This document shows, in pieces, positions 2,245 to 28,082 of a stretch of 28,564 nucleotides of DNA. Location: NCBI GenBank assembly GCA_963663405.2, contig CAXXSM010000038.1:1-28564 (forward strand). Reading direction: 5' to 3'. The notes below the pieces were generated by a model, which worked only from the letters and a program-made list of their open reading frames with translations, had not been told where the DNA came from and did no database searches. This DNA comes from a bacterium (GTDB taxonomy: Bacteria > Hinthialibacterota > Hinthialibacteria > Hinthialibacterales > Hinthialibacteraceae). The stretch's first letter is position 1. Every line of letters begins with the position of its first letter. The translations under genes and the position numbers were made by a program.

Positions 2245-2253
2245 GATTCCTCC

Positions 2254-3101
2254 TCACATCAGATCGGCGAACACGGCGTTGATCCGATCCTGAGCCTCGT
2301 GGCGAAGCGGCTCAGTCAAATGAGTGTAGATCTGTGTCGAACGAATACTGGAATGGCCGAGAAGAATCTGGACAACGCGCAGGCTTTCGCCGTTCTCCAG
2401 CAATCTGCTGGCAAACGAATGACGCATCGAATGCGGCTTCACATCGTCTGTCAGCCCGGTAGCGTTACAGGCCAAGCGAAACGCTTTGCCGAGTGTCGAT
2501 GAGGGAATGTGGTTGGAGCCTTGTTGGTTGGGGAATAGCCAGGTGGGATGGCGATGCATCAACCAGAGTTCACGCATCGGCTCCAACAAGGTGTCCGGGA
2601 GAGGAACGATTCGCTCTTTATCGCCCTTCCCAATAATCCGTAAACTCATTTGGTTGGAATCGATCTGCCGCACCGGAAGAGAGATGACTTCACTGGTCCG
2701 AAGGCCGCACGCATACATCAACGTTAGAGCCAACCGGTAGGGCGTTTTCCTGACGGCGGCCAGGAGGGCGCGAACTTGGGAATGGGTTAATGAATGCGGC
2801 AGGCGCTTTTGGCGAGGCTTACGAATCTTTTTTTTGCAAACAACGGCCACCCCAGATCCAGCGTGGTTTGATAAAGAAATTTCAGCGCGCTGTAGTGGAC
2901 CTGAAACGTTCCGAGAGCGACTTTCTTCACGTCTCGCAAATTCAGTAAATAGACCCGGACGAGTTCCTCGCTAATGCATTCTGGCGAGCAATCAAATTCT
3001 AGAGCGAATGAGGCGACGGCTCGGACGTATGCTTTTTGCGTGCCTTCGCTCAGTCCTGCTAACGTCATGTCTTCGATCATGCGTTTCCGTAATGATTTCA
3101 T
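2254..3101 (-). CDS. Tyrosine recombinase, split by a -1 frameshift at A8 (2828-2835)
   Basis: 2787..3101 encodes the N-terminal SAM-like domain (RKRMIEDMTLAGLSEGTQKAY). 2254..2850 encodes the catalytic domain: YACGLRTSE, GKGDKER, HSMRHSFA, LLGHSSIRSTQIY. Confidence 0.9.
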
Positions 3102-3418: not shown

Positions 3419-4150
3419 TTATATCTGCACTCTCTCCAACCGTTCTTTTCTCCGCTCCCAATCTGGCATGCATTTGGTCAAGAGTAAATAGAACTCACGA
3501 CTATGATTTGGAATTTTCAAATGGCATAGTTCATGAATGATAACGTAATCGATGCAATACAGTGGTGTTTTTATCAATTCTGAGTTGAGAATGATCTTTT
3601 TTTTTTTTGAAAAACTCCCCCAGCGTTTTTTCATTAGTCGTATTTGAATCTGAGGGTAATCTATGCCAAATCGTTTTACTTTTTCATAGCATTGGTCTAC
3701 ATGCTTTTGAATGAGCGGTTTTGCATGATCTTTGTACCATTGTTCGACTTGAGATTTGATGGCATTGTGATTCTCTTTATCTGGGAAACAAACCGTAAGG
3801 TATTTACCAATGAGTTTTACGCATTTCTCATTATTCTTGATTACTTTTAACCTGTATTGCCGTCCTAAATAGTGATGCGATTCGCCGGAAATGAATCTCC
3901 GTGGCGGTTGAAGCGGTTGGTATTTTTCAAAATTGTGTATTTGCTTCAGAATCCATTTGGATCGCTTTTCAACTCGTTTTTTTATCTCTTCTATATTTTT
4001 CCCTTGAGGGGCTTTTATAATGATTCGCTGATCAGGATGAACATCGATAGTAAATCGCTTTGAATTTGTAAATTTCAGTTCAAATTCAATTTTCTCTCCG
4101 CCATAGACAATGGAATGAAGATTTGGCTTATGAGTAACTTTCTCGACCAT
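3419..4150 (-). CDS. YgjP/DUF45-like (M48/SprT-type) HExxH zinc metallohydrolase
   Basis: MKKRWGS, IDYVIIHELCHL, NHSREFY. The start ATG overlaps the hsdR stop (TAATG). This family commonly follows hsdR. Confidence 0.9.
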   Translation of the reverse strand: MVEKVTHKPNLHSIVYGGEKIEFELKFTNSKRFTIDVHPDQRIIIKAPQGKNIEEIKKRVEKRSKWILKQIHNFEKYQPLQPPRRFISGESHHYLGRQYRLKVIKNNEKCVKLIGKYLTVCFPDKENHNAIKSQVEQWYKDHAKPLIQKHVDQCYEKVKRFGIDYPQIQIRLMKKRWGSFSKKKKIILNSELIKTPLYCIDYVIIHELCHLKIPNHSREFYLLLTKCMPDWERRKERLERVQI

Positions 4151-7100
4151 TATTTGCACCTGACTTTAGCGATATCGATGCATTGTTCCATGATTTCGTC
4201 GATCTCTTCAAAACTGAGATTGATATTTCTTTCTTCTTGTAGATCGAATAGGTAATCTTCAATTTTAGTTCGTATCTGATTTTGCACGTCTATATTGGTA
4301 TGCCAGTTTACGATTTTGTTTTTTTGGATAATTTCATCAATACCAATACTGGCATCTACTCCCATCGATACAAGAATATCCTCATTGTCTGCGTGTTCTT
4401 CAAGGACTTCTTGGAAAATCCCGTAAAAGGCTTGTGCGATTTCACGATTTCTTAATGAGTCAGGGATTTCTTCGTCAACATGATTCTGAACGGCTTTTTG
4501 AATTTCTCTTACTTTATTTAGGTATTCGAGATCAGAGAGCCGTTGTTCACGGAAAGCCCGAATCGCGTCCTCAATCAGTTTTGAGAATTTTCGATAAAAA
4601 GCTGGATCTTTTTCTTTCCATTCTTCAGAAAGCGTTTTCTTGGTACGATGAGCAATCGTATCCGCTTTGGAAGCGATAGAACGTTGCTTTTCTACTTCTT
4701 CTTTGAAAGCGTTCTCATCAAAAATATTGACTAACGGTGTCAGTGATTCGACTTCACCAGCGCCAACATGCGAGTCAAGCAGTTTTTTAATTTTCGGTTC
4801 ATACTCTTTAAAATCAATTTCATCCGCATAACGCCTGCGGACACTTGTCCTCAGGTTCATATAGAATTTTAAGTCTTTTTTGTATTGGTCTATCTTCTCT
4901 TGTGATGTACATTCAAGAAAATTGGCGGATGATAAAGCGAGATTGAGCGTTCTGGCGAAATCAGATAATCGGTCACAGAATTTATCCCGCAAGGCTTTAT
5001 CGGCAAGAAGCTGTTCATACTCTTCTTCATCGAGTTTATTTTTAATTCCTTTGAATATGTCCTTCAGGTCGGAGTATTTTTGTGGGAGTTTATTGGCGTG
5101 TTCAGTAATATCATCTAAAGCATTCAGAAGGTCGTCTTTCTCGTATTCAGACAGATTTCGGTATAAATCAAACGCTTCATCAAGTTTCCCCAATACGCCA
5201 TAATAATCAATGATGTATCCATAGTCCTTGCCTTCACTCAAGCGGTTTACACGTGCGATGGCTTGTAGAAGAGCATGTTCTTTCAAACTCTTGTAAACAT
5301 AGAGTACTGTGTTTCGCGGCGCATCGAATCCAACAAGTAATTTATCAACCACGATAATGATCTCAGGATCATCACCATGCTTAAATGAATTGATTAGTTG
5401 TTTGTTGTACTCTTTTTCTGTACCGTATTTATTCATCATCTTTTTCCAGAACTCAACAACCGGTTTTTTGTTGGTTTCATAAATATCGTCGTTACCTTCC
5501 CGGTCGTCAGGTCCAGAAATGAGTACTTCCGATGTCACCATTCCAAACTCATCAAAATACTGCTTGAATTTCAACGCGCTGAGTTTCGAATCGGCTACGA
5601 ATTGTGCTTTGAATAGTTTCTCTTCATTGTCGAAGAAATTTTTGAAGTGATATCCAACATCCCAGGCAATCGCTTTGATTTTTTGGCCGGCTTTGTTGAT
5701 CTGATCGGTTGTAGTGAATTTCTGTTTCAGATCGGCTTTTTGGTCTTTAGATAAGTTCGTTGTTACCTTGTCAAACCATTGATCGATAGCGTCTCTATCC
5801 ACGTATAACTGAACGTCCCGGCCCTCATACAAGAGTGGAACAACAGCCTTGTCCCTAACAGCCTGATCGATTGTGTAGGTATCGATTAAACCGCCGAATC
5901 TCTGAATGGTATTTTTCTGTTTCCTGATGACGGGAGTTCCTGTAAAACCGACAAAGCACGCATTAGGAAGAACTTTGCGCATTAACGCATGGATTTCGCC
6001 ATATTGTGAACGGTGGCTCTCATCGACCAATACAAAAATATTCTTATCCTCATTCTTGAAATCTTTCTTCTTGAGTGAGGCTTCAAATTTATCGATGACG
6101 GTCGTGATGATTCGTTCCTGCTGGCCGACGATTAATTCTAACAAATGATTCCCCGTTTTCGCTTGGATTAGGTCTTTACCACAATGTCGGAAAGTATTGT
6201 AAATTTGGTCGTCTAAATCTACTCGGTCCGTTACAAGAATGATCTTGTAATTATTAATATCCGGTTGCAGAGCAATCGATTTTGCAAGCATGACCATCGT
6301 AAGAGATTTACCGCTACCTTGTGTATGCCAGATTACACCGCCTTTTCGAGCGCCGTCTTGATCATACGTGGAGATTCGCTCAATGCTCTTATTGACGCAG
6401 AAATATTGCTGATAGCGTGCGATCTTTTTATCCCCTGCGTCGAACAAAATGTAGCGGAAGATAAGTTCGAGAAGCCTTTCTGGACGGCATAGGGAATAGA
6501 TCGCACGATCCTGTTCTGTGATTTCACGGCCACCGCCCGTTTCAATGGTGTCAAAATATTTCCATACATATTTAAATCGATCAGAGAAAAGTTGATCTTT
6601 CATTTCTATAGGTAATGGTTGATTAATCAGAGCATAGAGTTTTTTTTCTACGTTTTCATCTTCTTTCCATACGGACCAAAACTTTGCTGGGGTACCAGTC
6701 GTGGCATATTTAGCTTCGTTTTTGGATAGAGCGAGTAACAATTGAGAGTAGAGAAATAACTTGGGGATTTCATCTTCTTTTTGGTTGCGAATTTGCTGGG
6801 AGACAGCCTCATCAATAGAATTTTTAATATCGGGTCGTTTGCATTCGATCACAACCAATGGAATCCCGTTTACAAAAAGAACAATATCCGGGAGGCGGAT
6901 TTCATGGCTGCCGGTTCGTTCGACCGGGAATTCTTCTGTCACATGAAATACATTGTTTTCGGGATGTTCCCAATCGATATAATGAAGTGAGAAACTTTTC
7001 AGGTCTCCATAAATGGATTGTGGAAGGCTCTTACCCAGGCACAATAGGTCGTATACTTTTTCATTGGTTCTAACAAGTCCATCAAAGACAATGCTCTTGA

Positions 7101-7347
7101 GTGATTGAATCGCAGTTTGGATATTTCCTTCGGAAAACTTATGATCTTCTCCTTTATATTGAAACGTGTTCATATTGCGCAGTTGTGTTTCGAGGATACC
7201 GTCTAAAACAACATTGTTCAGTTTTCCGCCACGCTGTTTTTCTGCTTCAGTAGGAGAAAGATATACAAATCCCAAATTTTGCATTAATTGCAGAGCAGGG
7301 ATTTGAGAAATATGGTCTTCTTTGAAAGAGGGAGTATCAAGACTCAT
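4150..7347 (-). CDS. hsdR: Type I restriction endonuclease subunit R
   Basis: PDIVLFVNGIPLVVIECK nuclease motif; HTQGSGKS, DESH, GFTGTP and QAIARVNR helicase motifs; 1065 aa. Confidence 0.97.
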   Translation of the reverse strand: MSLDTPSFKEDHISQIPALQLMQNLGFVYLSPTEAEKQRGGKLNNVVLDGILETQLRNMNTFQYKGEDHKFSEGNIQTAIQSLKSIVFDGLVRTNEKVYDLLCLGKSLPQSIYGDLKSFSLHYIDWEHPENNVFHVTEEFPVERTGSHEIRLPDIVLFVNGIPLVVIECKRPDIKNSIDEAVSQQIRNQKEDEIPKLFLYSQLLLALSKNEAKYATTGTPAKFWSVWKEDENVEKKLYALINQPLPIEMKDQLFSDRFKYVWKYFDTIETGGGREITEQDRAIYSLCRPERLLELIFRYILFDAGDKKIARYQQYFCVNKSIERISTYDQDGARKGGVIWHTQGSGKSLTMVMLAKSIALQPDINNYKIILVTDRVDLDDQIYNTFRHCGKDLIQAKTGNHLLELIVGQQERIITTVIDKFEASLKKKDFKNEDKNIFVLVDESHRSQYGEIHALMRKVLPNACFVGFTGTPVIRKQKNTIQRFGGLIDTYTIDQAVRDKAVVPLLYEGRDVQLYVDRDAIDQWFDKVTTNLSKDQKADLKQKFTTTDQINKAGQKIKAIAWDVGYHFKNFFDNEEKLFKAQFVADSKLSALKFKQYFDEFGMVTSEVLISGPDDREGNDDIYETNKKPVVEFWKKMMNKYGTEKEYNKQLINSFKHGDDPEIIIVVDKLLVGFDAPRNTVLYVYKSLKEHALLQAIARVNRLSEGKDYGYIIDYYGVLGKLDEAFDLYRNLSEYEKDDLLNALDDITEHANKLPQKYSDLKDIFKGIKNKLDEEEYEQLLADKALRDKFCDRLSDFARTLNLALSSANFLECTSQEKIDQYKKDLKFYMNLRTSVRRRYADEIDFKEYEPKIKKLLDSHVGAGEVESLTPLVNIFDENAFKEEVEKQRSIASKADTIAHRTKKTLSEEWKEKDPAFYRKFSKLIEDAIRAFREQRLSDLEYLNKVREIQKAVQNHVDEEIPDSLRNREIAQAFYGIFQEVLEEHADNEDILVSMGVDASIGIDEIIQKNKIVNWHTNIDVQNQIRTKIEDYLFDLQEERNINLSFEEIDEIMEQCIDIAKVRCK

Positions 7348-7360
7348 GATTATTGCCTTT

Positions 7361-8521
7361 TCAGATTTTTACCCGCACTTTACCCGTAAGTAATTTTTGC
7401 ATTAAGCCTTTTTTTTGATAGTTCAATAATTCCAATTTTCTTGTCAAAATCTTAATTTCTAAATCAATTGCATTTAGTACACTTGCGACAAACTTTTGGT
7501 CATCAATTGTTGGTAGAAATAAAACTTGTTTTTTTAAAGTCTCTAAGGTTATTCCTTTAACTGTACTCCCTGATCCAATTCTCTCTAACTTGTTTGCATG
7601 AGTGTTAAACCAATATAATAAATATAACTTATCGAGATTTGCTTTAGGAAAAATCCCTTTTAAATCTTGGTTTATTGCGACATCACAATTAAATATGACT
7701 GCTTTACCTACAGCCATACGAGTAGATACAATAACAGTACCTTTTGGAATCAGATTAGCAGAACTATTATTTAAACCTTCTAAATTAATATGTTCTTCTG
7801 TATCAGAATAATCAAATCTATTCAGATCTTTTACTGTAGCCCAAGGTATTCTGCCTTCCCAATATTTGGTAAATTTTCTTGATGGTGTCCCTCCGCCTAT
7901 AATTTTTTCAATACAATCTTCAAGTCGCTTTTCTTTCTGATAAGGAAACTGCTTCTTTCCAGTCAACAATTGTTGCATAAGCCCTTTTTTAAATTTCTGT
8001 TTAGCTTCAATCAGGTGATTGGTTTGGTCGATGGCTTTATCCCATGCGGAGAGGATTTGGGAGATTTTTTTTTGTTCTTCAATTGAAACTTTTGTTACTT
8101 CAAAATTAGACAATGACTTTTTATCAATATTTGGAAAAGTAGATCCCGAAGTAAATTTTAGTATTCTCTGAGTACTATATACGAGAATATGTTCTATGAA
8201 AGAAGTTAAAAAACCATTTTTCCCACGTATTGCTGCTACACCTCTACCAATACAATAATTATCATCAGCTATATTTATTCTTCCAGTTGAACTCCCACGA
8301 ACACATAAAAGAATATCGCCTTTATTACAAATTTTTGTTGGTTTTGAAGTCCACTGTTTTTTGATAGGAAACCTATTTGTAAACTCAGTAGGACCATTGA
8401 TTAAAGGAATTCCGATTTTTTCTGAATTATAGCTATCACCACGAGGAGATTGTCCCATTTCTATGTGAGATATCTTCCCAATTTTTATCAATTCATTTTT
8501 ATTCTTAATTAATTTATCCAT
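7361..8521 (-). CDS. hsdS: Type I R-M specificity subunit S (two TRDs)
   Basis: GQSP and GGTPSR TRD starts; conserved helical spacers EEQKKI...KKGLMQQLLTGK and KKGLMQKLLTGKVRV. Markedly AT-rich. Confidence 0.96.
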   Translation of the reverse strand: MDKLIKNKNELIKIGKISHIEMGQSPRGDSYNSEKIGIPLINGPTEFTNRFPIKKQWTSKPTKICNKGDILLCVRGSSTGRINIADDNYCIGRGVAAIRGKNGFLTSFIEHILVYSTQRILKFTSGSTFPNIDKKSLSNFEVTKVSIEEQKKISQILSAWDKAIDQTNHLIEAKQKFKKGLMQQLLTGKKQFPYQKEKRLEDCIEKIIGGGTPSRKFTKYWEGRIPWATVKDLNRFDYSDTEEHINLEGLNNSSANLIPKGTVIVSTRMAVGKAVIFNCDVAINQDLKGIFPKANLDKLYLLYWFNTHANKLERIGSGSTVKGITLETLKKQVLFLPTIDDQKFVASVLNAIDLEIKILTRKLELLNYQKKGLMQKLLTGKVRVKI

Positions 8522-10016
8522 TGAATCCCAACTCCTTTAAATAACCAGCCATTGCTTTGCGCGTAACCGTCAGTTCGCTTTCGAGTTCGTCAATCTCTTT
8601 CTGGGTCGCTGCGATGTCGATCTCTTCTTCTTCCTCAAAGCTATCGACATAGCGAGGGATGTTGAGATTGAATTCGTTCTCATCGCGGATTTCTTCAAAA
8701 GTGGCACGATAGGCGTATTTCTCGACTGTTTTGAATTTCTTGTAGGTTGCAACGGTCTTGTTTATGTCTTCTTCGCGTAGTTTGTTCTGTGTCTTGCCCT
8801 GCTCAAATTCACGGCTTGCATCAATAAAGAACACGTCCTTGGTCTTCTTGCCTTTATTGAAAATCATGATCGCTGCCGGGATACCAGTTCCATAAAACAG
8901 ATTTGCAGGAAGCCCCACTACCGCTTCAAGAATATTCTCTTCCACGAATTTTTGTCTGATTTTCCCCTCTTGCCCCCCTCTGAACAAAACACCATGTGGA
9001 ACAATCACTCCAACACGGCCTTCCTCCACAAGCGCCGTTTCAACCATATGGAGAATAAATGCGTAATCTCCCTTGCTTTTGGGAGGTGTCCCACGCAAGA
9101 AGCGCTGAAACTTGTCACTTTCCGCGATGTCCGCTCCCCACTTATCAAGAGAGAAGGGAGGATTCGCTACAACGATATTGAACTTCATGAGCGAATCATC
9201 TTGGATCAATTTGGGGCTGGTAATCGTATTGCACCATTCGATCCGGGCACTATCCATGCTATGCAGAAACATATTCATTTTGCATAGCGCCCAAGTACTG
9301 CCGTTGCTTTCCTGTCCAAAGAGCGAAAAATCATTGTTGCCCACTTCATGCGCAACCTTGATAAGCAAAGAACCAGAACCACAGGCTGGATCGCAGATCG
9401 TATCCCCCGGTTTGGGATTGAGTAGTTTCGCTAAAAGAATAGAAACTTCCGGTGGTGTATAGAATTCACCACCTTTCTTACCGGCACCGCTGGCAAAACG
9501 GGCAATCAAGTATTCATAGACATCACCGATCACATCGCGGTTGCCGATTTTTGACGGGCGAAGATCGAGTTTTTCATTATTAAAATCATTGAGCAAAGCT
9601 TTTAGACGACGATTGCGTTCCTTAGTTTCGCCCAGGTTTGCTTCACTGTTAAAATCGATCATGCGAAATACGTTTTCCAATTTGGCCTTATTGGCGTCTT
9701 CAATCTTTTCCAAGGAGATGTTGAGTAATTCGCCGATATTGGCTTCCTCACGCTTTGCATATAGGTGATCAAAATCACACTCCTCAGGTAGAATAAATCG
9801 TTCACGGCTTAACGCTCTTTGGATGCGTTCTTGGTTACCTTTGTATTTCTTTTCATATTCCTCTTTTATATCCTTCACCAAATCGGATAAGTACTTAATA
9901 AATAGCATCACAAGGATATAATTTTTATATTCAGATGGATCGACCGCTCCACGGAACGTGTCGCATGCCTGCCAAACGATGTTGTTGATTTCTTGTTGAG
10001 TTACTTTATTGGTCAT
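8514..10016 (-). CDS. hsdM: Type I R-M N6-adenine methyltransferase subunit M
   Basis: GEFYTP, DPACGSGSLL, VANPPFS, PHGVLFRG, LNIPRYV. Confidence 0.97.
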   Translation of the reverse strand: MTNKVTQQEINNIVWQACDTFRGAVDPSEYKNYILVMLFIKYLSDLVKDIKEEYEKKYKGNQERIQRALSRERFILPEECDFDHLYAKREEANIGELLNISLEKIEDANKAKLENVFRMIDFNSEANLGETKERNRRLKALLNDFNNEKLDLRPSKIGNRDVIGDVYEYLIARFASGAGKKGGEFYTPPEVSILLAKLLNPKPGDTICDPACGSGSLLIKVAHEVGNNDFSLFGQESNGSTWALCKMNMFLHSMDSARIEWCNTITSPKLIQDDSLMKFNIVVANPPFSLDKWGADIAESDKFQRFLRGTPPKSKGDYAFILHMVETALVEEGRVGVIVPHGVLFRGGQEGKIRQKFVEENILEAVVGLPANLFYGTGIPAAIMIFNKGKKTKDVFFIDASREFEQGKTQNKLREEDINKTVATYKKFKTVEKYAYRATFEEIRDENEFNLNIPRYVDSFEEEEEIDIAATQKEIDELESELTVTRKAMAGYLKELGFNG

Positions 10017-14601: not shown

Positions 14602-16318
14602 ATGGGGATGGGCTGCACGCGGGTGGTGGAGCGGGTCTGCGCGGCGACCGGGCAGTTGGAAGAAGCCCCGACTCGTTTCGAGATGGAATTGGATGTGGCG
14701 CAAGGCGGCGTGTTATGGGCAATGCCCGCGTTACTCGCCAACGGGCTGCTGAAGAATGTCTCGAAGAACTTTTCTCTGCCCAAAGGATTTTACAGTTGCG
14801 TCCACATTTTTATTGTGTTGGCCTTCATGGCGTTGACGCGGATCAAAACGCCGGAACAGTTGCGCTATCATCCCGCGGGGGAAGGGGGCAAGTTACTGGG
14901 CTTAGATCGAATTCCCGAAGTGCGGACGTTGCGGGAAAAAATCAAAATTCTCGCTCAACCGGACCGGATCAAAGAATGGGGGGACGAATTATCCCGGGAG
15001 TGGATGAAGGCGGATCTGGACGCGGCGGGCGTTTTATATGTCGATGGTCATGTCCGCGTCTATCACGGTTCGCAAACAAAACTGCCCCGCCGTTACGTCG
15101 CGCGTCAGCGATTATGTTTGCGTGGACTTACCGACTATTGGGTGAACGACCAGGAAGGCCGCCCCTTTTTTGTGGTGAGCACTCCATTCACCACCGGCTT
15201 GTTGGATATGCTCAAACGGGACATTGTTCCCCAGTTGCTCCAAGACGTTCCCCGTCAACCCACAGCCGAAAACCTCGAATCCAATCCTTATTTCCACCGG
15301 TTCATCCTGGTGTTCGACCGGGAAGGCTATAGCCCGGAGTTCTTCGCCCAGATGTGGGATTCGCGGATCGCCTGTCAAACGTACCGCAAGTTTCAGGGGG
15401 AGGATTGGCCAGTCACAGAATTCGAAACGGTGAATGTGCGTCTGCCCGGCGGACAGGATTCGTCGATGCGTTTGGCCGAGAGAGGCGTCTTTCTGGGAGG
15501 GAAAATCTGGGTGCGGGAGATTCGCAAGTTGGGAGAGACGGGGCATCAAACCGCTGTGATCAGTACGGATTATACATCAGACGCAAGTCAAATAGCGGCC
15601 CATATGTTCGCGCGTTGGTGTCAGGAAAACTTCTTCCGCTACATGATGGAACATTATCATTTAGATGGACTTATCGGGTATGAAACAGTCTTGCCGGATG
15701 AGACGATGAAGGTGGTGAATCCGGCCTACCGGAAATTGGAAAGTCAGATCAAAAGCCTGGCGGGGAAGAAGGCCCGAAAGCAAGCGGAGTTCGGCGCTCT
15801 TGTCCTGCAGGAACCCTCCAATTCGAAAGAGATCGAACGCTATGAAATACAGAAAGGCGCGCTCTTTGAAGAGATCGATCAGATAGAAAATCAACTTGAG
15901 GAGTACAAGCGGCTCCGGAAGCAAACGAAAAAACATATAGCGTTTGGGGATTTGCCAGAGGAAGCAAAATTTCAACAATTGGCGCCGGCGAAGAAAACAA
16001 TTCATGGATACGATTCGAATGATTGCGTATCGGGCGGAAACGGCGATGGTATCTGTGTTGAGGGAAGTGTTAAGCCGGGGGGATGATGCGCGTTCATTGG
16101 CGCGGGAAATCATGACCACTGAAGCGGACCTGATTCCCGATGAAGAAAAAGAGACTCTCACGATTCGGCTCCATCACTTGACCAACCGCATTTCCGATCA
16201 AGCTGCCCGTCATTTGGCCGCTCAATTGAATGAAACCGAAACCACTTATCCTGGCACGAATCTACGTCTCGTTTACCAATTGGTGTCAGATCAATATCCC
16301 CCAGATCAGGAGGCCTGA
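14602..16318 (+). CDS. IS transposase (DDE), with an extra-base frameshift near 15995
   Basis: LYVDGHVRVY, VFDREGY, RWCQENFFRY catalytic-type motifs. Continues in 15944..16318 (FMDTIRMIAYRAET). Confidence 0.8.
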
Positions 16319-16398: not shown

Positions 16399-17011
16399 CC
16401 TCCGGCAGAGCCGGAGGCTTGATTTTGTGAACCGCTCAAAGCGGTTTGAATTACGAGCCACCTAAAGGTGGCTATGCATTATCGAACAAACTCAATTGTT
16501 CTAGTCGTTTATCCTCTTGCTCTTGATTTCTGATATATTCTCTGATTATGGCTTCATCTTTTCCCACTGTTGATACCAAATATCCGCGGGCCCAAAAGTG
16601 CTGCCCCACGAAATTCCTTCTCTTTCCTAGATAATTTCTCGCTATATGAATCGCACTTTTCCCTTTTATAAAACCTATCACTTGCGCAACTGAATCTTTT
16701 GGCGGTATCGAGATCAACATATGAACATGATCCACTATCAGATGCCCTTCTTCTATTTCACATTCTTTCTGACTCGCCAAATCTCGAAAGACTTCTCCTA
16801 GGTATTTCCTCAATTCTTTGTATAAGGCTTTTCTTCTATATTTCGGAATGAATACCACATGATATTTGCAATCCCATCTTGTATGCGTTAAACTCTTATA
16901 CGTCATTTCTTCTCCTTCCTGTGTAACTTTGAGCGGTTCACATGAAGGAGATTTTTTTTTTTCGATTCCTGGAATTGTCAAACACTGGGAGTCCCCCGGC
17001 AGAGCCGGGGG
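16399..17011 (-). mobile_element. IS200/IS605-family element (tnpA only)
   Basis: Subterminal hairpins CCTCCGGC-AGA-GCCGGAGG (16399-16417) and CCCCCGGC-AGA-GCCGGGGG (16993-17011). Inner 16-bp inverted repeat at 16426-16441 / 16927-16942. Confidence 0.9.
16472..16906 (-). CDS. tnpA: IS200/IS605 Y1 transposase
   Basis: CKYHVVFIPKYRRK, DHVHMLISIPP (HUH), IKGKSA, FWARGY, IREYIRNQ. GGAG RBS before the ATG at 16906. Confidence 0.95.
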   Translation of the reverse strand: MTYKSLTHTRWDCKYHVVFIPKYRRKALYKELRKYLGEVFRDLASQKECEIEEGHLIVDHVHMLISIPPKDSVAQVIGFIKGKSAIHIARNYLGKRRNFVGQHFWARGYLVSTVGKDEAIIREYIRNQEQEDKRLEQLSLFDNA

Positions 17012-18336: not shown

Positions 18337-18631
18337 GTATACATCGAATTTAATTTATTGAATTGAAGCTTTAATATTATAGTTGGTGTAATTTTTTATT
18401 GCAGTGTTGGGCGAAATGAAAGCGTCTGTGGATTATGAACTTAGGAATTCGTACTCGATATTCCTCCCTTTTCCTCTAATCCCGGCTGGCTCTTCTTAGT
18501 GAAAAAAATTTTGTTTTTTGGTCTATAGCCGTTTACAGGAGACGATTTTCCTGTTAACAAATTAGCGAACTAGAAGCGCAGCTGATGCTGAAACGATATA
18601 ATACGCGGTTCTCATTCGAAAAGGGGATGTG

Positions 18632-19615
18632 ATGTACCCAATCATGCGGGACGCCATATACACCGGGCTCTTCCTCGCTGCGGCGGTTCTCTTCTCAACC
18701 GGCCTGGCCGCGCAGGAAATTCTCCCGGATGGAGGGGCGCTGAAGCCTGTTCCCGCTGATCTGACCTTTTCGCTAAGCGCGGATTCGGTGGAATTGAAAG
18801 AATCGGGGGGGGGTAGAGGATTTAACACCGGTTCGGGTGATGGGGTTGACTATCCTTCTTCGATCGAATTCATCTCCGAGAGAGAAATCATCATCGATGT
18901 GGGGGCGTACGCGCCGACGTGGCAGCTCTTTTGTACGGTGGAGGATTTTCATGGATCGGGGGGGTCCAATTCGGGGCGGTTGTTCATCAAACCGCAGCGG
19001 GATCCAGCGAACCTGACCAAATCGTTCGGCGGGACGTTGGACATCTCCGGTGATACCTTGATCGCGGAAGGAGCCTGCTCGGATGGGAAGATGTTCGAGG
19101 CGAACCGGTTCCGCATCGGCGCGCGGTTGGGCATCACCGACCCGGCGGGGGTGTATAGCGGGCGGATTACAATCTTCGCCCTTGCGGGGAAAAGTACGAA
19201 GCCGGTTTTTGCGCGGTCGATTGAATGCTCCTTCTGTTGTCCGGAGTTTGCGTGGGTTTATGTGCATCCAAAAACGATGGATTTTGGGAGTTGTTCTATA
19301 GGATACAATGTTTCGAAGACGTATCCGCGGGTGTTTGTCTTGACCAATGCGGGCCGGATCACGGTGACGTGTAGTATTACGGAATTATCCGGGTCGGGGG
19401 GGACGATTCCACGGTCGAATTTGGGATTGAGAAGCGGGAAGACGATTGCGGATGCGAAGCCGAGTGAGAATGTTTCTCCTGGCGCTCCGGATTTATTCTT
19501 GAACTTTGGTTGTGGATTTCATACCTTTTATCTGGCAGGGAGCGCGAAGATTACAACAAGTATTGGAGCTGGGAGATATAGCGGAAAGATCAATATAACG
19601 ACACAAGTCAATTAA
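18632..19615 (+). CDS. Secreted two-domain pilin-like (Csu/SCPU- or WxL-like) protein
   Basis: Signal peptide (FLAAAVLFSTGLAA). Two beta-rich domains, each ending in a pilin-type terminal strand: DPAGVYSGRITIF and GAGRYSGKINIT. Confidence 0.6.
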   Translation: MYPIMRDAIYTGLFLAAAVLFSTGLAAQEILPDGGALKPVPADLTFSLSADSVELKESGGGRGFNTGSGDGVDYPSSIEFISEREIIIDVGAYAPTWQLFCTVEDFHGSGGSNSGRLFIKPQRDPANLTKSFGGTLDISGDTLIAEGACSDGKMFEANRFRIGARLGITDPAGVYSGRITIFALAGKSTKPVFARSIECSFCCPEFAWVYVHPKTMDFGSCSIGYNVSKTYPRVFVLTNAGRITVTCSITELSGSGGTIPRSNLGLRSGKTIADAKPSENVSPGAPDLFLNFGCGFHTFYLAGSAKITTSIGAGRYSGKINITTQVN

Positions 19616-19674
19616 TTCCAGCCTATTGTGTTGGATTATATCCTAAAAGAAAGGAGGTATGGAATGACTGGCTT

Positions 19675-19780
19675 AAATTAAGTTCGCCCAGAGAGACTGG
19701 TCCTCTCTCCAGGCGAGGGTACTGCGGGCGTGGTCCATGTGGGCGTTATGGCGGACAGCCACAAGGAACCACAAAGGCTG
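19675..19780 (-). ncRNA. Candidate antisense structured sRNA
   Basis: Begins with a CAGCC...GGCTG hairpin. Ends with a 13-bp stem TCGCCTGGAGAGA-GGACCAG-TCTCTCTGGGCGA whose two G.U pairs form only on the minus strand. Confidence 0.35.
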
Positions 19781-19785
19781 ATTCT

Positions 19786-19814
19786 ATTATAGCCGTAAAA
19801 CTCATGTCCGCCAA
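19786..19814 (-). promoter_or_regulatory. Antisense sigma70-like promoter
   Basis: TTGGCG-N17-TATAAT on the minus strand. Confidence 0.45.
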
Positions 19815-19824
19815 GAAGAAATTT

Positions 19825-19904
19825 GAGTGAGATGCGTTGATCCCCTGTTCTTTAACTGGTCACGAATGGGACAGGGGGAGAGCAAATCGTGAACCCGTCC
19901 ACTC
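19825..19904 (+). ncRNA. c-di-GMP-II-like riboswitch aptamer, copy 1
   Basis: P1 GAGTG/CACTC; TGC/GCA stem with tandem GA kink-turn; P3 CCCCTGTTCT/GGGACAGGGG; pseudoknot TCACGA/TCGTGA plus GG/CC. Confidence 0.75.
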
Positions 19905-19909
19905 GGCAT

Positions 19910-19988
19910 GAGTGAGATGCGTCGATCCTTTGTCCTTTAACTGGTCACGAATGGGGCAAAGGGGAGCAAGTCGTGAACCCGTCCACTC
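19910..19988 (+). ncRNA. c-di-GMP-II-like riboswitch aptamer, copy 2
   Basis: Same core as copy 1. P3 covaries to CCTTTGTCCT/GGGGCAAAGG. Confidence 0.75.
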
Positions 19989-19991
19989 CAA

Positions 19992-20071
19992 AAGTGAGAT
20001 GCGAAGATCTTTCGCCCTTTAATCTGGTCACGAATGGGGCGATTGGGAGCAAGTCGTGAAACCGTCCACTT
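19992..20071 (+). ncRNA. c-di-GMP-II-like riboswitch aptamer, copy 3
   Basis: P1 covaries to AAGTG/CACTT; P3 is TCGCCCT/GGGGCGA; canonical GTGAAACCG segment. Ends 28 nt before the pilin ATG. Confidence 0.8.
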
Positions 20072-20099
20072 GTTTTTAACTTACTTTTGGAGAATTAAA

Positions 20100-20504
20100 A
20101 TGAAAAAATTCGCAATCGTAATGCTGTTCGCTATTTTCGCTTTTCCCGTATTTGCTGATACTGATGATTCAGATACTATTGATGTGACGGTTAATGTACC
20201 TCTCGATATGGGTGTTTTTATTGATGATGGCCAAACTTCTCAGAGTCCAACAATAACTTGGACAGACGATAGTGGTTCATGCTCATTTGATATTTCAATA
20301 ACATATTATTCAAATGCTACTTCTTCTGATATTGATGCTGAATGGTCTTCAACATCAGGTAGTGGTACTTGGACTCCAACTGATCTAACAGGGCTTGCAG
20401 CGGGTTGGGCTCAGCCTGAGACAATTTCTACTACTATTGACGGAATTGCACATGCAGATGGTCAATCATTAAGCGGCACTTTAACAGTGACAATTTCTGG
20501 TTAA
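20100..20504 (+). CDS. Secreted small pilin-like protein (putative major subunit)
   Basis: GGAG RBS; signal peptide MKKFAIVMLFAIFAFPVFA; mature N-terminus DTDDSDTIDVTVNVP; C-terminal SGTLTVTISG strand; acidic and S/T-rich. Confidence 0.65.
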   Translation: MKKFAIVMLFAIFAFPVFADTDDSDTIDVTVNVPLDMGVFIDDGQTSQSPTITWTDDSGSCSFDISITYYSNATSSDIDAEWSSTSGSGTWTPTDLTGLAAGWAQPETISTTIDGIAHADGQSLSGTLTVTISG

Positions 20505-20546: not shown

Positions 20547-21077
20547 ATGCCTACAAGTAAAAGTATGTTAATATCGATATCTTTTATATTTTTCGTAGGC
20601 TTAACCTTCGGACCTATTGCTTCTTCAGATACTGATGATACTGATTCTATTATTGTCACAGTAAATTTACCAAGATGCGGGAGTTTTTCATTTTCGACGA
20701 CTGACATTTTTTTTCAAGTCACTCATTATGATTTAAATCCCGCTCATACTGATGATTTTTTCCAGAGTGGAGTTGATTTTTCAGTAATGGTAAATTATGA
20801 TGCTACAATCAAGTGTCCAAAGGGTATTACTCTTTACCATGAGGATGATGAAAATCAAGAAGCTCCAGTACGTGTTGGGATGTATTATACAATTGATCCT
20901 AACACACAGCCTGATCCAATAGGAGAATATTGGTGTTTTGACATCTCTCCTGGTGTTTTAGAAGGTATGCGCTTGTCATTACACATTACCTATGATTGGA
21001 CATATAATGATAAGCCTGGTAATTATAATGGCGATATAATTGTTGAACTTGATCCTGATCCTGAACAATGGGATTAA
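20547..21077 (+). CDS. Secreted pilin-like protein (putative minor subunit)
   Basis: GAGGAGG RBS; signal peptide; mature N-terminus DTDDTDSIIVTVNLP; C-terminal DKPGNYNGDIIVEL. Confidence 0.65.
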   Translation: MPTSKSMLISISFIFFVGLTFGPIASSDTDDTDSIIVTVNLPRCGSFSFSTTDIFFQVTHYDLNPAHTDDFFQSGVDFSVMVNYDATIKCPKGITLYHEDDENQEAPVRVGMYYTIDPNTQPDPIGEYWCFDISPGVLEGMRLSLHITYDWTYNDKPGNYNGDIIVELDPDPEQWD

Positions 21078-21173
21078 TATTTGGTGAAATATTATTAAGT
21101 CTTCTCGTAACACAATTTGTTGCGAGAAGACTTTTCTTGTTTATGGATATTTAACACAAAAAAGGAGTATAGA

Positions 21174-22907: not shown

Positions 22908-25900
22908 ATGAAATTCTGTTTTTTTTTTAATATTTTTTATATACTTTTTTCCTTCCTCCTCACTTTCTCGCGAGTTTGAAAAATATTTTGATAGCTCTAT
23001 TACTGGTAATGATATTATAGATTTAAGTGATTGGATACAAGAAGGACCTTTAGAAGGAGGTGAATGGGTATTAAGTGATTCTGATAATGATGGAATCATA
23101 GATCAAGTATATCAAACTTTAAATACATATTACATTTCTTTTTTTGTCTCACAAGAAATTATAACAGCTGGAAATGAATTTGAAGGCTGGTTTACTACGA
23201 GTGGTAGTGATAATGACTATTTTGGATTTGTATTTAACTACCAAGATGAAAAAAACTATATTGTTTTTCAATGGAGAAAATCTGATCAAGATTTTTTTGT
23301 CGGTTTTGGTGAAGCTGGTATTAGTATACTTAAAATTACTGATATTGACCCATATCAGCAGATTGAATCATCAAGTAAATTATGGAGCGCAACTGATGTT
23401 GAAGGTGTGAAAGTTCTCGATAAATGGGCGAGTTCAAATGGTGGCAAAGGATGGGAAAAATATATTATTTATTCCTTCAACCTAAGCGTTTATAATTATG
23501 CTTTTCGTATCCAAATACACAAAAGTGATTCATCCCTTGTATATGATAGTGGTGTTATTCATTTAGATGATCCAATAAATGGTCGCTATGGTTTTTATAA
23601 TTTATCTCAAGACGATGTGATATATTCTGCCAGCGCAATAAGAGAAATATCAAGCAATCCACCTCCACCAACACCAAAAATAACTCTATCTTCTACACTA
23701 ATACCTACGTTTGCACACACCCATACGCCCACGGCTACTCATACATTAACCCCAACAATCACCCCTACTCCAACCGAAACGCCGACGGCTACTCACACCC
23801 ACACGCCCACGGCTACCTATACAGTAACGCCTTCGATCACTCCGACTTTTACGGAGACGGCTACAGCCACCTTTACGCCTGCGCCTACGGTTACTTTTAC
23901 ATGGACTCCTACACAGACCGCTACGTGGACGTTGGCTCCTTCGGCTACGTTTACGCCTACGGCGACGGCGACACTTGCGCCTTCTCCTACACCAAGTCTG
24001 TCCCCCACACCAACAGCTACGCCGACTGCGACGCCGGTTCCGATTGTGGTTCATCAATGCGCGAACGATTTTTCGCTGCGGCAGTATTCGGCGCTCGCGC
24101 TCTTCCTCCAAACCAGATGGATTTCTGACGGCGGATCTGGACGGGGACGGGCGGAAGGAGGCGTTAACAGCGCTTCCCGAAGCGAACGAGATTCTGCTCC
24201 TCGCGCCGGGAGACCCATCCGGGGGGACGTTGGTTGAAACGCATATTTCCATTGGCGATCCGGATTTCTACATCGACCGCATCGCCTGCGGCGACCTGGA
24301 CGGCGACGGCTGCCCGGAACCTCTGCGCCGTCTCGTATCTCTACGAAAAAACGATCGTCCTCTCCACGGACGCGCCTTACCCCATCCTCTACGAAATCGA
24401 AACCACCGCCCCCCCAGGCCCGCTATTACCAAGTCAAATCCAAAGGCAAAAACCAACCGGTCACCTTCGCCGACGCGGGACCACGACGGGCGGGATGAAC
24501 TCTACATCGTCGAAGAATCCGATTCCGCATTCAACCAGATCCAGCGCTGCACCGCGTCCGAAGACGGGCAAACACTCGAATCCACAACGATTCCAAACCC
24601 CCGGCGTCACCATAGGAGACATCCAAGCGATCGCGCTGGAAGACATAACAGGCGGCGGCAACCTGGAAATGATCCTTATGACCAAAATCCAAAACGAAAA
24701 CGCAGCTGCCGCGTTGACACAAGTCTCCCCCAATGAATACGCGCCCTCCGCGATCTTCTCCCTCGATGACACCATGACCGGCAACAGCGTATCCGCGTTC
24801 CGGTTCGGCGACGCCAACGGCGATGGGATCACGGACGCGATCGTCGTCCCGTTCGATGGAAGCGTCCGGATGCTGAGCCTAGGCGATGAAAACCGGATCG
24901 AACAAACGATCGTCGGGAATATGGATGTCAGCGCCGTAATCGATGACGCGGCGATCTCCGATCTCGATCTCGACGGCGTCCAGGATCTGGTCTACGCCGT
25001 GCGGGGATACCAAACCGTGGAAACAAGTGCTGATCATGTGCGGTGAAAATCCAGGCGAATTCAGCGCCGCCGCGCTCTTCGACACCCGACCGGGATGTCA
25101 AACTGGGGAACTTGATGATCGAATCGCTCGATCTGAACCAGGACGGCCGGGAAGACCTCGCCTTCCTCGACAGCTCGCGGAACGAACTGCTCCTGTTCCT
25201 CAATCTATCCATCAGCGGAGATCCCACCCCCCACTCCAGAACCAACCATAGAAACGATAAGCGTCGATTTCACACAGCTAACAGCGAACACACTCGCGGG
25301 ATTCGAACCCGTGTCGATCATAGAAACCGGCCCCGTGCCGATCGAAGAACCAGCGTCCGGGCTGACGGATGGGTGGGGAATGAGGGTCCATCTTTTGCCC
25401 GGACAGGGGACATTCCTTCTAGGAAATGAGGCGGTTGGGTTGAGCGATCCATCGATTGAGATATCAGTATCCACAAACTGCTCGAATGACGCGGTGGAGC
25501 TGGGATTAATCGCCATCGCGGATTTGCAAGACGGGAATTATGGATACATCAATCCAACAAAGAGCGAAATTCCCGTTCAACAATGGGAACAGATCCGCCT
25601 CGCGTATGACTCACCAGCCCTGTCGATTGTTCCAGCGCTGCAAGTGGTCCTTCCGGAAAACGCGGAGGTATCTTCAGCGACAGTCTATTTCGACCGGCTG
25701 GAGATCAAGCCCCTTAAGATATTGTATAAAAACCCGATCACTATGAAAGTGGATACAACATTCGATACAGTGAATGAATCATTGGATGGTATCAATCCGA
25801 ACGCATATCTCCCTCAAGAAACAGCGGTTGGAGATGTTTCCTTAACAGATGGAATGAATGGAAAGGGGATACAATTACAGATCACGCCCGATCAATTAGC

Positions 25901-26464: not shown

Positions 26465-28082
26465 ATGAAAAAGATGCTAAGGATGTATCAAGTAACATTT
26501 CTCGCTATATTATTTTTCTCCACCGGTATTCCTTATTCCATACTAAGTTGTCAAGCGGAAATCGATTTGTTTGGCGAAACAGATGAAACACGGAACTATA
26601 TCGCTTTTAGCAAAGCGATCGAAGCGGCTGAGATATCGGCGGTTGAGTTGGAAGAGGAAAGCGCCTCCACCCCTGCTGAAGCTGTACCCGAAGAAGAGAA
26701 ACCAGAGGAAGGCACCACCGATAATTCTAGCGCTGATAATTCTAATGAAGAGATTAAAGTGACAAATTCCTTTTTCGAAAGCGATTTGAGACAAGCGTTT
26801 CAGGGACATCGCGTTGTCGATTGGGGAGACCATCATCGTAGCGCCTGAGGTGCAAGCTTATGTGACGTTGGAGCTGAACGAGGTTCCAATCAGCAAAGTT
26901 TTCAAATTAATGCTAGCCGGCACAGGATATATGATGGAGAAAACGCCGGATTACTATTTGATCTACTCCCCCGATTCCCCAAAGCCAATCCTTTATTGAA
27001 CTGAGCCGAACCCATGTTTTACGATTGAACTATATCGATGCGGACAGCGCGGTGAAATTGCTATCCCCGATGCTCCAAAAATTTGTCATAGCGAGTCCCG
27101 CGCGATCGTTGGACCGTTCACAATCAACCCGGCGGGAGTCGTATTCCAGTTCTTCCGGTTCATCCGCATCACGAATGGCCCAAGGCTTCGCGAAAACAAT
27201 CACAACCGATAATACTGTCTGTATCACAGCGCCTCCCTCTCTAATCGAACGAATTGTGACGGATCTGAAATGATTGACCGGCGTCCCATGCAAATTATGC
27301 TGGACGCGCGTATTGTATCTATGGAGAGTTCAGATCTACTCAACATGGGAGTGGATTGGGAATGGCCTCAAATCGGAGCGGGAGCGTTTGGAAGTTCGCA
27401 GACTCAACCCAATTGGCCTTGGGGAATACAGATCGGTTATAATTCCTCGTCTGAATTTACAAACTCGTTATTATTGACATTAAACCTTTTATCAGCCAAT
27501 GAAGAAGCGACGATTCTCGCGAATCCCCAAGTAATTGCCCAAGATGGGAAACCTGCGCAAATCAGCGTCACACGCGAGGAATATTTTGAAATACTCACTC
27601 AGGGTTATTATACTCGTTCGGAACTGGAGAAAGTCGAGATCGGAACGGTATTGACGATTACGCCGATCATTGGAGAGAACAACGAAATAACGATGGCAAT
27701 CAGCACGGAAGTGAGCGATGTGATCGCCCGTGGATCAAACAACCTTCCCGTAGTCACACGCCGTATGGCCGAAAGTACAGTGCGCGTTGAAACGCGGGAC
27801 GACAACCATCGCGGGATTAGTAGATAATCGGACATCGTGTGTCTAAAAACAGAGTTCCCGGTCTCAGTTCAATACCCATTCTCGGACAACCGTTTATCAG
27901 CGAAGATGATACTGATTATTCTAGGCAAGTAGCGATTTTTATCACTCACGGATTATCAAGGAGGATAAACCAACCAGCGGGGCCAGCCTAGTGAGACAAA
28001 GTATGTATCAACCCGCGGAGAGGAATTTAAAGAAGCCCTTCTCGAAAGTATCAAACGGAATAAACACCGTATAAAGAAATGA
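26465..28082 (+). CDS. Secretin (PilQ/GspD-like outer-membrane channel), frameshifted
   Basis: N0/N-domain-like FFESDLRQA...VAPEVQAYVTLEL and LNYIDADSAVKLL; QIMLDARIV, GVDWEW, ILANPQVIAQDGKPAQI, GTVLTITPII, RRMAESTVRV; further on RVPGLSSIPILG and VAIFIT. Confidence 0.85.

Follow-up and report, generated by a model that had tools for sequence, protein, structure and literature searches.

A triple array of class II c-di-GMP-type aptamers with one putative translational platform in an uncultured bacterial lineage

In this study, we analyzed a stretch of 28,564 nucleotides (nt; "the window") from a bacterium of the Hinthialibacterota, which is contig CAXXSM010000038.1 (C38) of an 8.44-Mb genome in 170 contigs that is 82% complete (G000). 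The window contains three abutting aptamers of the class II c-di-GMP (cyclic diguanosine monophosphate) type, all on the forward strand, in the leader of a two-gene unit that encodes putative secreted proteins. A preliminary description of the window had reported three copies of ~80 nt with linkers of 5 and 3 nt, the last ending 28 nt before the next gene (ATG at 20100), and these figures proved exact in the sequence and in hand-placed folds; the three-copy observation is confirmed. Building on the fold and its covariation, the layout, the complementarity to the Shine-Dalgarno (SD) region and the frequencies of a pocket allele, we think it reasonably likely that the array is a single-platform ON switch of three aptamers, in which aptamers 2 and 3 would be coupled and a cytosine at position 70 (C70) would lower the affinity of the copies that carry it.

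The array and its fold

Aptamer 1 occupies positions 19825-19904, aptamer 2 positions 19910-19988, and aptamer 3 positions 19992-20071, with the linkers GGCAT (19905-19909) and CAA (19989-19991) between them. Tandem Repeats Finder returned the array as a repeat with a period of 83, 2.6 copies, 84% matches and a score of 296 at 19850-20070. In the minimum-free-energy fold of 19815-20115, the first linker is the loop of an alternative hairpin, in which the 3' strand of helix P1 from aptamer 1 is paired with its 5' counterpart from P1 of aptamer 2. All hand-placed pairs of aptamers 1 and 2 are standard, and two U.U mismatches in P3 of aptamer 3 (20010:20044 and 20011:20043) are the sole unpaired cells in the array. 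For the three window copies alone, standard pairs fill 76 of the 78 pair cells, and five pairs changed on both sides, one in P1 and four in P3, values that were reached by 4-6 of 500 shuffles. The conserved loops with compensatory changes in P1 and P3 that had been reported earlier are thus present. Aptamer 1 has an extra A in its kink-turn strand (GAGA). The pocket reads GTGAACCCG in aptamers 1 and 2, with C at 19894 and 19978 in the place equivalent to A70 of structure 3Q3Z, and GTGAAACCG in aptamer 3, with the canonical A at 20061 and the G73-equivalent at 20064.

A terminator scan of the window found no terminator-like site between the copies or after aptamer 3, in agreement with the earlier statement that no terminators separate the aptamers. 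Inside the array, the scan returned a single site (20001-20015), where a hairpin of 6 pairs internal to aptamer 3 precedes CCTTTAATCT. Of the three copies, only aptamer 3 can form this alternative hairpin, GCGAAG-ATC-TTTCGC, which would be a rival of its own P2 and P3.

The letters of the array, including the A/C difference in the pocket that had been flagged for checking, were compared with independent letters in contigs of public runs from three studies (X1, X2, X3, and X5), among which the X1 and X2 contigs may represent the source sample. Contigs of X1 covered 19808-19928 and 20006-20108, and those of X2 covered 19911-20061, with 0 differences in each. In X3, which belongs to another study, 19786-19981 was covered with 2 differences, located elsewhere, and in X5, from a third study, 19722-19972 was covered with ten differences and the C at 19894 was kept. 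Alternative letters in X1 were those of a paralogous array on contig C106. Since the same letters recurred and the junctions were bridged in these contigs, the array is neither an assembly artefact nor a read error. No RNA run is listed as carrying the sequence; the X3 run is labelled metatranscriptomic and is probably DNA, and the contigs behind its high depth at 20092-20123 continue differently from the window.

The class II c-di-GMP layout (kink-turn, long P3, and pseudoknot) recognized in the preliminary description was borne out by covariation of the fold in paralogs and metagenome relatives. We aligned 20 RF01786 matches of this genome (alignment A2) and scored the class II fold, including the pseudoknot, against shuffles. 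Standard pairs filled 88.1% of the pair cells compared to 73.7% in shuffles, a level reached by 0 of 500. P3, which was recovered independently by RNAalifold, covaries at 9 of 9 pairs, and 97.1% of the pseudoknot cells are paired, with two pseudoknot pairs switching on both sides (GC 12/AU 8 and CG 11/GC 8). The GA...GA letters of the kink-turn are invariant or nearly so. P1 reached 61%, a low figure that is due only to a difference in its register between two subtypes. Metagenomes scanned with a pattern gave at least 120 stretches, from which our own model, R1, confirmed 80 matches in 80 loci. Among these matches listed, 91.9% of cells pair, compared to 69.3% in shuffles, and covariation extends to 5 of 5 pairs in P1. 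In the pseudoknot, the one pair that the search pattern left free is AU in 40 and GC in 36 and is never unpaired, the other pseudoknot pairs being fixed by the pattern and so uninformative. When 20 of the 80 loci were scanned at Rfam thresholds, 15 aptamers passed RF01786 (53.6-70.9 bits) and five passed RF03169 or RF03170.

The window copies themselves score lower. Against RF01786, aptamers 1, 2, and 3 gave 36.6, 39.4 (E 4.5e-7), and 39.0 bits, and against R1 they gave 78.9-85.4, 89, and 71.9-78.9 bits, respectively. The search with the Rfam models that had been proposed earlier returned nothing in the window at the gathering threshold (53.5 bits for RF01786), and the identification draws on E-value matches, with E of 1e-5 to 1.6e-6 per genome for the three copies, together with the covariation and the relatives. 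Under an E-value threshold, RF01786 has 21 matches genome-wide, none above 53.5 bits and the best at 52.8 bits. Weak Rfam rows for CRISPR-DR2, mir-485, and HOTAIR_1 near the array (E 0.5-9) were treated as chance, and an R1 match at 25248-25304 (20 bits) lies in coding sequence and is unlike an aptamer.

In structure 3Q3Z, the nucleotides that contact the ligand are A13, A14, U37, G39, U60, A61, C68, A69, A70, C71, C72, G73, and A74 (PMC7288161); the pocket has A61 as its ceiling, while G-alpha is read by A69 and G-beta by G73, helped by the ribose of A70 (PMC13715770). The equivalents of A13, U37, G39, A61, A69, C71, C72, and G73 are kept in all three window copies, and A70 is kept in copy 3 only. 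Three contacts are changed in every copy: A14-U60 reads U-A, C68 reads A with a compensating change, and A74 reads U. The window copies thus appear to be AU-rich, low-scoring members of a subfamily inside the recognized c-di-GMP-II clan. The riboswitch call is supported by these comparisons at the level of sequence, and from the fold and pocket we infer c-di-GMP as the probable ligand. A consequence is that, in an uncultured lineage, an entire set of such aptamers, about 20 in number, falls below the Rfam cut-off.

The predicted expression platform

The longest helix that covers the SD motif GGAG (20089-20092) pairs 19986-19998 with 20080-20092 and is 13 bp long, gapless, with a predicted energy of -17.2 kcal/mol. 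Its anti-SD arm, CTCCAAAAGTGAG, is made up of the last 3' bases of aptamer 2 P1, the linker and the 5' strand of aptamer 3 P1, and its SD arm, CTTACTTTTGGAG, contains the GGAG. Because the anti-SD arm spans these P1 strands, the 13-bp helix excludes P1 of aptamer 3 and, in part, P1 of aptamer 2. Both arms are unchanged in the C106 paralog, where an 8-nt insertion falls between them. Comparable complementarities were observed in two relatives: in G028, the P1 3' strand CUCCAUG pairs with CAUGGAG at the SD (7 bp), and in G018, CUCCUGU lies just 5' of the aptamer, facing ACAGGAG.

In the unconstrained ensemble, the probability that the SD is unpaired was 0.00-0.05. Opening of 20086-20112 cost 10.25 kcal/mol when no aptamer was forced into its native fold, 10.16 kcal/mol with aptamer 1 forced, 6.96 kcal/mol with aptamer 2, and 4.45 kcal/mol with aptamer 3; the cost was 5.14 kcal/mol with aptamers 2 and 3 forced together and 5.37 kcal/mol with all three. 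Secondary-structure thermodynamics gave coupling free energies of -2.9 kcal/mol between aptamers 2 and 3, -0.5 between aptamers 1 and 2, and +0.4 between aptamers 1 and 3. Reaching the native fold cost 18.0 kcal/mol for aptamer 3, compared to 9.7 and 13.1 for the other two; with its alternative hairpin and its two U.U mismatches, the SD-proximal aptamer 3 is therefore the least stable of the three.

We hypothesize that the three abutting class II aptamers in the leader of the secreted-protein unit feed one translational platform. Without ligand, the 13-bp helix would tie the junction of aptamers 2 and 3 to the SD region, and the small hairpin would likewise join aptamer 1, by its 3' strand, to the 5' strand of its neighbour, aptamer 2. 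Stabilization by ligand of P1 of aptamer 3, and partly of aptamer 2, would break the 13-bp helix and free the ribosome site, making the device an ON switch. As aptamers 2 and 3 would be rivals of the same helix, the folding of one would cheapen that of the other, and the response would be steeper than that of a single aptamer. Gating would fall mainly to aptamer 3, with aptamer 2 linked to it via the shared competitor helix and aptamer 1 a weak link at most. Overall, the folding model suggests a cooperative single-platform ON switch as a reasonable but lightly supported reading. The preliminary description had proposed cooperative or graded sensing, or a mixed-ligand logic, and the coupling of aptamers 2 and 3 through the shared anti-SD helix makes the cooperative part plausible; the mixed-ligand part fared less well, as set out below.

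Several points weigh against this hypothesis. A helix of at least 13 bp arose in 19 of 1000 dinucleotide shuffles, which places the observed one modestly beyond chance, and its second occurrence is only in the near-identical C106 paralog, so it comes without covariation. The energy model ignores the energies of the pseudoknot, the kink-turn, and the ligand. In that model, aptamer 1 is without effect on SD opening and its coupling to aptamer 2 is slight, which leaves the role of aptamer 1 unexplained by the platform. A strict AND gate of aptamers 2 and 3 is not supported, as the two together open the site no further than aptamer 3 alone. Among the 16 gene-proximal aptamers of the genome, only 7 have their SD paired to the aptamer in the minimum-energy fold, and a general rule that the SD pairs with the 3' side of the aptamer is therefore not claimed for the whole family. 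The failure of all three copies to reach the Rfam gathering threshold, the extra kink-turn base of copy 1, and the two P3 mismatches of copy 3 count against the reading as well. An intrinsic terminator formed from aptamer 3 P1 and the T run that follows was also considered and was absent from the terminator scan.

Position 70, related aptamers, and alternative readings

Position 70 was assigned by counting from the Rfam consensus, ...GUGCAACCG; the window reads GUGA-A-C-CCG in copies 1 and 2. The variable base had been described as the adenine that stacks between the ligand guanines, and this matches A70 of 3Q3Z, which intercalates between the two ligand bases, contacts the ligand by its ribose alone, and has no base-specific hydrogen bond described (PMC13715770). 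The equivalents of A69 and G73, which do read the ligand, are intact in every copy. In the 78 metagenome relatives among the matches listed that could be read (2 of the 80 were dropped because the motif regex failed), position 70, which the search pattern did not constrain, is A in 58, C in 20, and G or U in 0, and the single C70 aptamers at loci L192, L178, L137, and L155 pass RF01786. The aptamers of this genome have A, C, or U there. The position reads U, C, A in the C106 array compared to C, C, A in the window, and two aptamers of contig C130, C130_a with U70 and C130_b with C70, precede near-identical 323-aa genes. C70 is a common natural allele. Given that A70 does no more than stack and that A69 and G73 are both intact, reduced stacking is the most economical reading; most likely, the C in aptamers 1 and 2 lowers affinity and leaves the ligand the same. 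A natural series of A, C, and U at this position spans singles, a double, and two triples in one genome, and C70 accounts for 26% of the environmental relatives among the matches listed, so that it provides ready material with which to measure the contribution of the stacking base to affinity.

With model R1, this genome yielded 22 aptamers, whereas 5 of the 34 other genomes of the 35-genome phylum comparison set yielded one each, none of them tandem there; about 110-125 first-look candidates were scored per genome, and weak matches may have been missed. A loose regex census of the genome revealed no further aptamers. It did return a 31-nt stretch, identical or with one change, on contigs C7, C28, C65, and C77, which is unlike an aptamer and is probably part of a repeat or insertion sequence. 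Of the 16 gene-proximal aptamers, 13 end 20-39 nt before an open reading frame (ORF) of at least 130 aa, most of these ORFs have a signal-peptide-like N-terminus, and the downstream genes that could be identified include LRR and PD40 repeat proteins. In the relatives G006 and G018, the orthologs of the 134-aa gene that follows the window array are each preceded by a single aptamer, which carries A70. No two matches lie <250 nt apart in any of the 80 metagenome loci, among the matches listed. The RpoB of this genome is 82% identical to that of a metagenome-assembled genome labelled Candidatus Omnitrophota, and the next match, from KSB1, is at 56%.

The paralogous triple array lies on the reverse strand of C106 at 58402-58659 (L009), together with its upstream gene and leader, and 1470 of 1562 positions (94%) are identical to window 18600-20165. 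Its copy 1 has a C-to-A change that breaks the pseudoknot, and its copy 2 has a 2-nt insertion. The ORF downstream stops after about 55 codons, ahead of a transposase gene (insertion sequence). An abutting double aptamer with a 5-nt linker and C70 in both copies was found on the reverse strand of C18 at 33777-33950 (L008/L013), before a 254-aa secreted protein; the SD there is complementary to the proximal aptamer's P3 5' strand and pairs with it over 9 bp. Eleven aptamers of this genome, which we call type B (contigs C18, C130, C149, C6, C55, and C85; loci L004-L008, L011, L013, L014, L016, L017, and L020), read GGCGAA[U/C]CCCC, with C in place of G73. C at position 73 occurs in only 3 of the 78 metagenome relatives among the matches listed. 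Judged by these letters, the type B aptamers could read the ligand differently, bind a different ligand, or form a further specificity class.

The genome has 9 GGDEF matches and no SMODS match. Six class I c-di-GMP riboswitches score over the Rfam cut-off (55-66 bits; contigs C110, C6, C36, C64, C85, and C29), indicating that both c-di-GMP riboswitch classes are probably in use. With 22 class II-type and 6 class I aptamers, the lineage apparently relies heavily on RNA sensing of c-di-GMP. In one metagenome locus (L164:8173-8433, reverse strand), a truncated class II-like match without the 3' strand of the pseudoknot is followed, about 100 nt downstream, by a class I c-di-GMP aptamer scoring 83 bits.

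The folding energies are also compatible with an arrangement in which only aptamer 3 works, and the other two aptamers, having arisen by recent duplication, contribute little or nothing to regulation, serving at most as extra ligand sites or as protection of the mRNA 5' end. Aptamer 3 alone gives the full drop in opening cost and aptamer 1 gives none; yet the 3' end of aptamer 2 belongs to the anti-SD arm. Only aptamer 3 has the canonical A70, and a single aptamer stands before the orthologous genes in G006 and G018, but the triple layout is kept in both paralogous arrays of this genome. It is aptamer 1 that differs most between those arrays (6 substitutions vs 2 in aptamer 3). However, aptamers 1 and 2 retain full pairing in every helix, aided by compensatory changes, and the substitutions in aptamer 1 helices seen in contigs of the two other studies (19850, 19835, and 19871) give G.U wobbles. 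We therefore regard this arrangement as unlikely. Far less credible is that the copies are not sensors at all, their fold being incidental to a mobile element or a dispersed repeat, or that they form an OFF or transcriptional device. The contrast between 22 copies here and one each in 5 of 34 relatives, in a genome rich in insertion sequences, would fit a repeat, but 13 of 16 gene-proximal copies share their orientation and their distance of 20-39 nt from start codons, their helices covary, and their loop and pocket letters are fixed. The T run after aptamer 3 P1 would fit a terminator, but the scan gave no terminator-like site there, and a helix that excludes aptamer 3 P1 predicts ON rather than OFF.

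The mixed-ligand logic gate of the preliminary description, in which the C70 aptamers 1 and 2 would bind another cyclic dinucleotide than the A70 aptamer 3, has some attraction, as position 70 lies in the pocket between both ligand bases and an engineered, not natural, single-base-deletion derivative of c-di-GMP-II binds isomers of cyclic GMP-AMP (PMC13715770). Nevertheless, A70 stacks and touches the ligand by its ribose only, and the bases that read the ligand, A69 and G73, are the same in all three copies. The separate Rfam variant family RF03170, with the consensus GGCGAGCCCG, also has C at position 70, but it has G at position 69, which the window copies do not. Furthermore, C70 is frequent, occurring in a quarter or so of the metagenome relatives and in singles that pass RF01786, and it interchanges with U between paralogs, both before near-identical genes (C130_a and C130_b) and between the first copies of the C38 and C106 arrays. 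No SMODS-type cyclase matched in this 82%-complete genome. The logic gate is accordingly improbable, and the claim was not supported. Of the readings considered, we favour the single-platform ON switch in which C70 would weaken two of the three sensors.

Downstream genes, surroundings, and comparison with known riboswitches

Gene 1 (20100-20504, forward strand) encodes a 134-aa candidate secreted protein of an uncharacterized family with 27 representatives. Its N-terminus, MKKFAIVMLFAIFAFPVFA/DTDD, reads as a Sec signal. The product has no Pfam or NCBIfam match; a word-index search returned only the protein itself, a PDB sequence search gave a best E of 1.1, and a profile search gave 27 matches, with no family over cut-off among the 20 scanned. 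Gene 2 (20547-21077, forward strand) encodes a 176-aa, likely secreted, paralog-like protein that aligns with gene 1 and its orthologs in G006 and G018 (profile search P0002). It is followed on the same strand, at 21097-21133, by a terminator-like hairpin of 16 pairs and then a T-rich tail. The gene after the array had been called a putative major pilin, and this was not upheld: its signal peptide is of the Sec type, it matches no pilin family, and it does not show the prepilin leader ending in G, with a hydrophobic N-terminal helix after it, of a type IV pilin. The sole pilin leads are weak ones, an SCPU cluster in the Atlas (score 0.91, rank 26) and a sub-threshold DUF4402 match of the upstream gene.

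Mobile and defence genes surround the locus (window 1078-2850, 4150-10016, 14602-16086, and 16472-16981). They comprise an IS91-type Y2 transposase and an integrase, a complete type I restriction-modification set (HsdR, HsdS, and HsdM), a Transposase_29 gene, and an IS200-like transposase. A 185-aa ORF at 27270-27827, 7 kb downstream of the aptamers, has a Secretin domain (E 8.5e-17); it is short for a secretin, perhaps only a fragment of one. Six leaders from five genomes (window 19647-19654 and 19684-19716, and L009, L022, L023, L024, and L026) share an invariant motif, AAGGAGG, which is close to a perfect extended SD. It is found about 115-170 nt upstream of their aptamers, with a GC-rich hairpin after the motif. 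A small upstream ORF after the motif was considered and is not conserved.

In comparison to RF01786 and 3Q3Z, the window aptamers have the same P1, P2, kink-turn, and long P3, and the same pseudoknot of the P3 loop with a 3' strand, interrupted by a two-base bulge (positions 69-70), and like them they stand upstream of secreted or surface proteins. They differ in that the pseudoknot pair G40:C68 is U:A, the first P2 pair is U-A instead of A-U, position 74 is U, and position 70 is C in two of the three copies. RF03170 (c-di-GMP-II-GCG) and RF03169 (c-di-GMP-II-GAG) belong to the same clan, CL00127, and RF03170 shares C70 with the window. Both variant families, however, have G at position 69 (consensus GGCGAGCCCG and GGCGAGACCG) and the loop GGUCGCC with the 3' strand GGCGA, like the type B paralogs, whereas the window copies keep A69 in every case and have GGUCAC/GUGA. 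Copy 1 scored 22.9 bits on RF03169, for which the cut-off is 40, and the window copies therefore fall outside the variant families. We found no description of the A69/C70 combination in the literature searched, which did not extend to supplementary tables.

Tandem c-di-GMP-II riboswitches have been surveyed by Sherlock et al. (2022; PMC9481103). The portion of that survey used here lists 59 doublets and 9 triplets, mostly from Paraclostridium and before a surface-anchor gene, and classes them as "multiple expression platforms, pseudo-cooperative", that is, as independent riboswitches. The earlier emphasis on three aptamers as unusual was thus overstated, since nine triplets are published there; what does stand out, relative to the same portion of the survey, is the abutting layout with a single platform. 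The window array resembles those tandems in having several class II aptamers in one leader before a surface-protein gene and in the steeper response that would be expected. It differs from them, as far as they are described in that portion, in its 5- and 3-nt linkers and its lack of a platform between aptamers, in the one SD-sequestering helix that overlaps P1 of two aptamers, and in its occurrence in an uncultured lineage rather than in Bacillota. The pseudo-cooperative type has a terminator or other platform between successive aptamers, for which the scan of the window array, with its short linkers, gave no terminator-like candidate. The triple-tandem class I array Bc3-5 of Bacillus thuringiensis (PMC4759541) likewise has three c-di-GMP aptamers in one 5' untranslated region, but its class I fold is unrelated, and the part of that report used here describes "three complete riboswitches".

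More tentatively, the array could be a three-sensor, one-platform c-di-GMP switch in which two sensors weakened by a pyrimidine at position 70 and a canonical one handicapped by its two P3 U.U mismatches are chained by mutually exclusive P1 and anti-SD helices, so that a surface-fibre unit is turned ON in a sharp manner and at high c-di-GMP only. In nature, steep and switch-like responses are reached mainly through tandem riboswitches, which for class II c-di-GMP are reported, in the literature used here, only as chains of complete units, and an array with 3-5-nt linkers and one SD helix over two P1 strands offers a compact, directly testable model of RNA-only cooperativity.

The closest parallel is found in adjacent aptamers, which the portion of PMC12452182 used here defines as lying closer than a terminator allows; glycine riboswitches are typical of them, and c-di-GMP riboswitches tend towards complete tandem units. 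The window array has the form described there for adjacent aptamers with a single platform, with its aptamers less than about 20 nt apart and one candidate platform after the last. No description of abutting, adjacent-type c-di-GMP-II aptamers was found in the literature searched, and the supplementary tables of PMC9481103 and PMC12452182 may list exceptions. If the more tentative reading given above is correct, no earlier adjacent-aptamer architecture would precede this one for the class II fold. With the glycine type, as presented in the portions of both papers used here, the array shares a spacing too short for a terminator, a single and often translational platform, and an expectation of cooperativity. 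Glycine riboswitches, however, have two aptamers that touch via tertiary contacts, whereas the window has three, and the sole identifiable coupling between them is competition for shared alternative helices; its cooperativity, if real, would be built from shared competitor helices and not from tertiary contacts.

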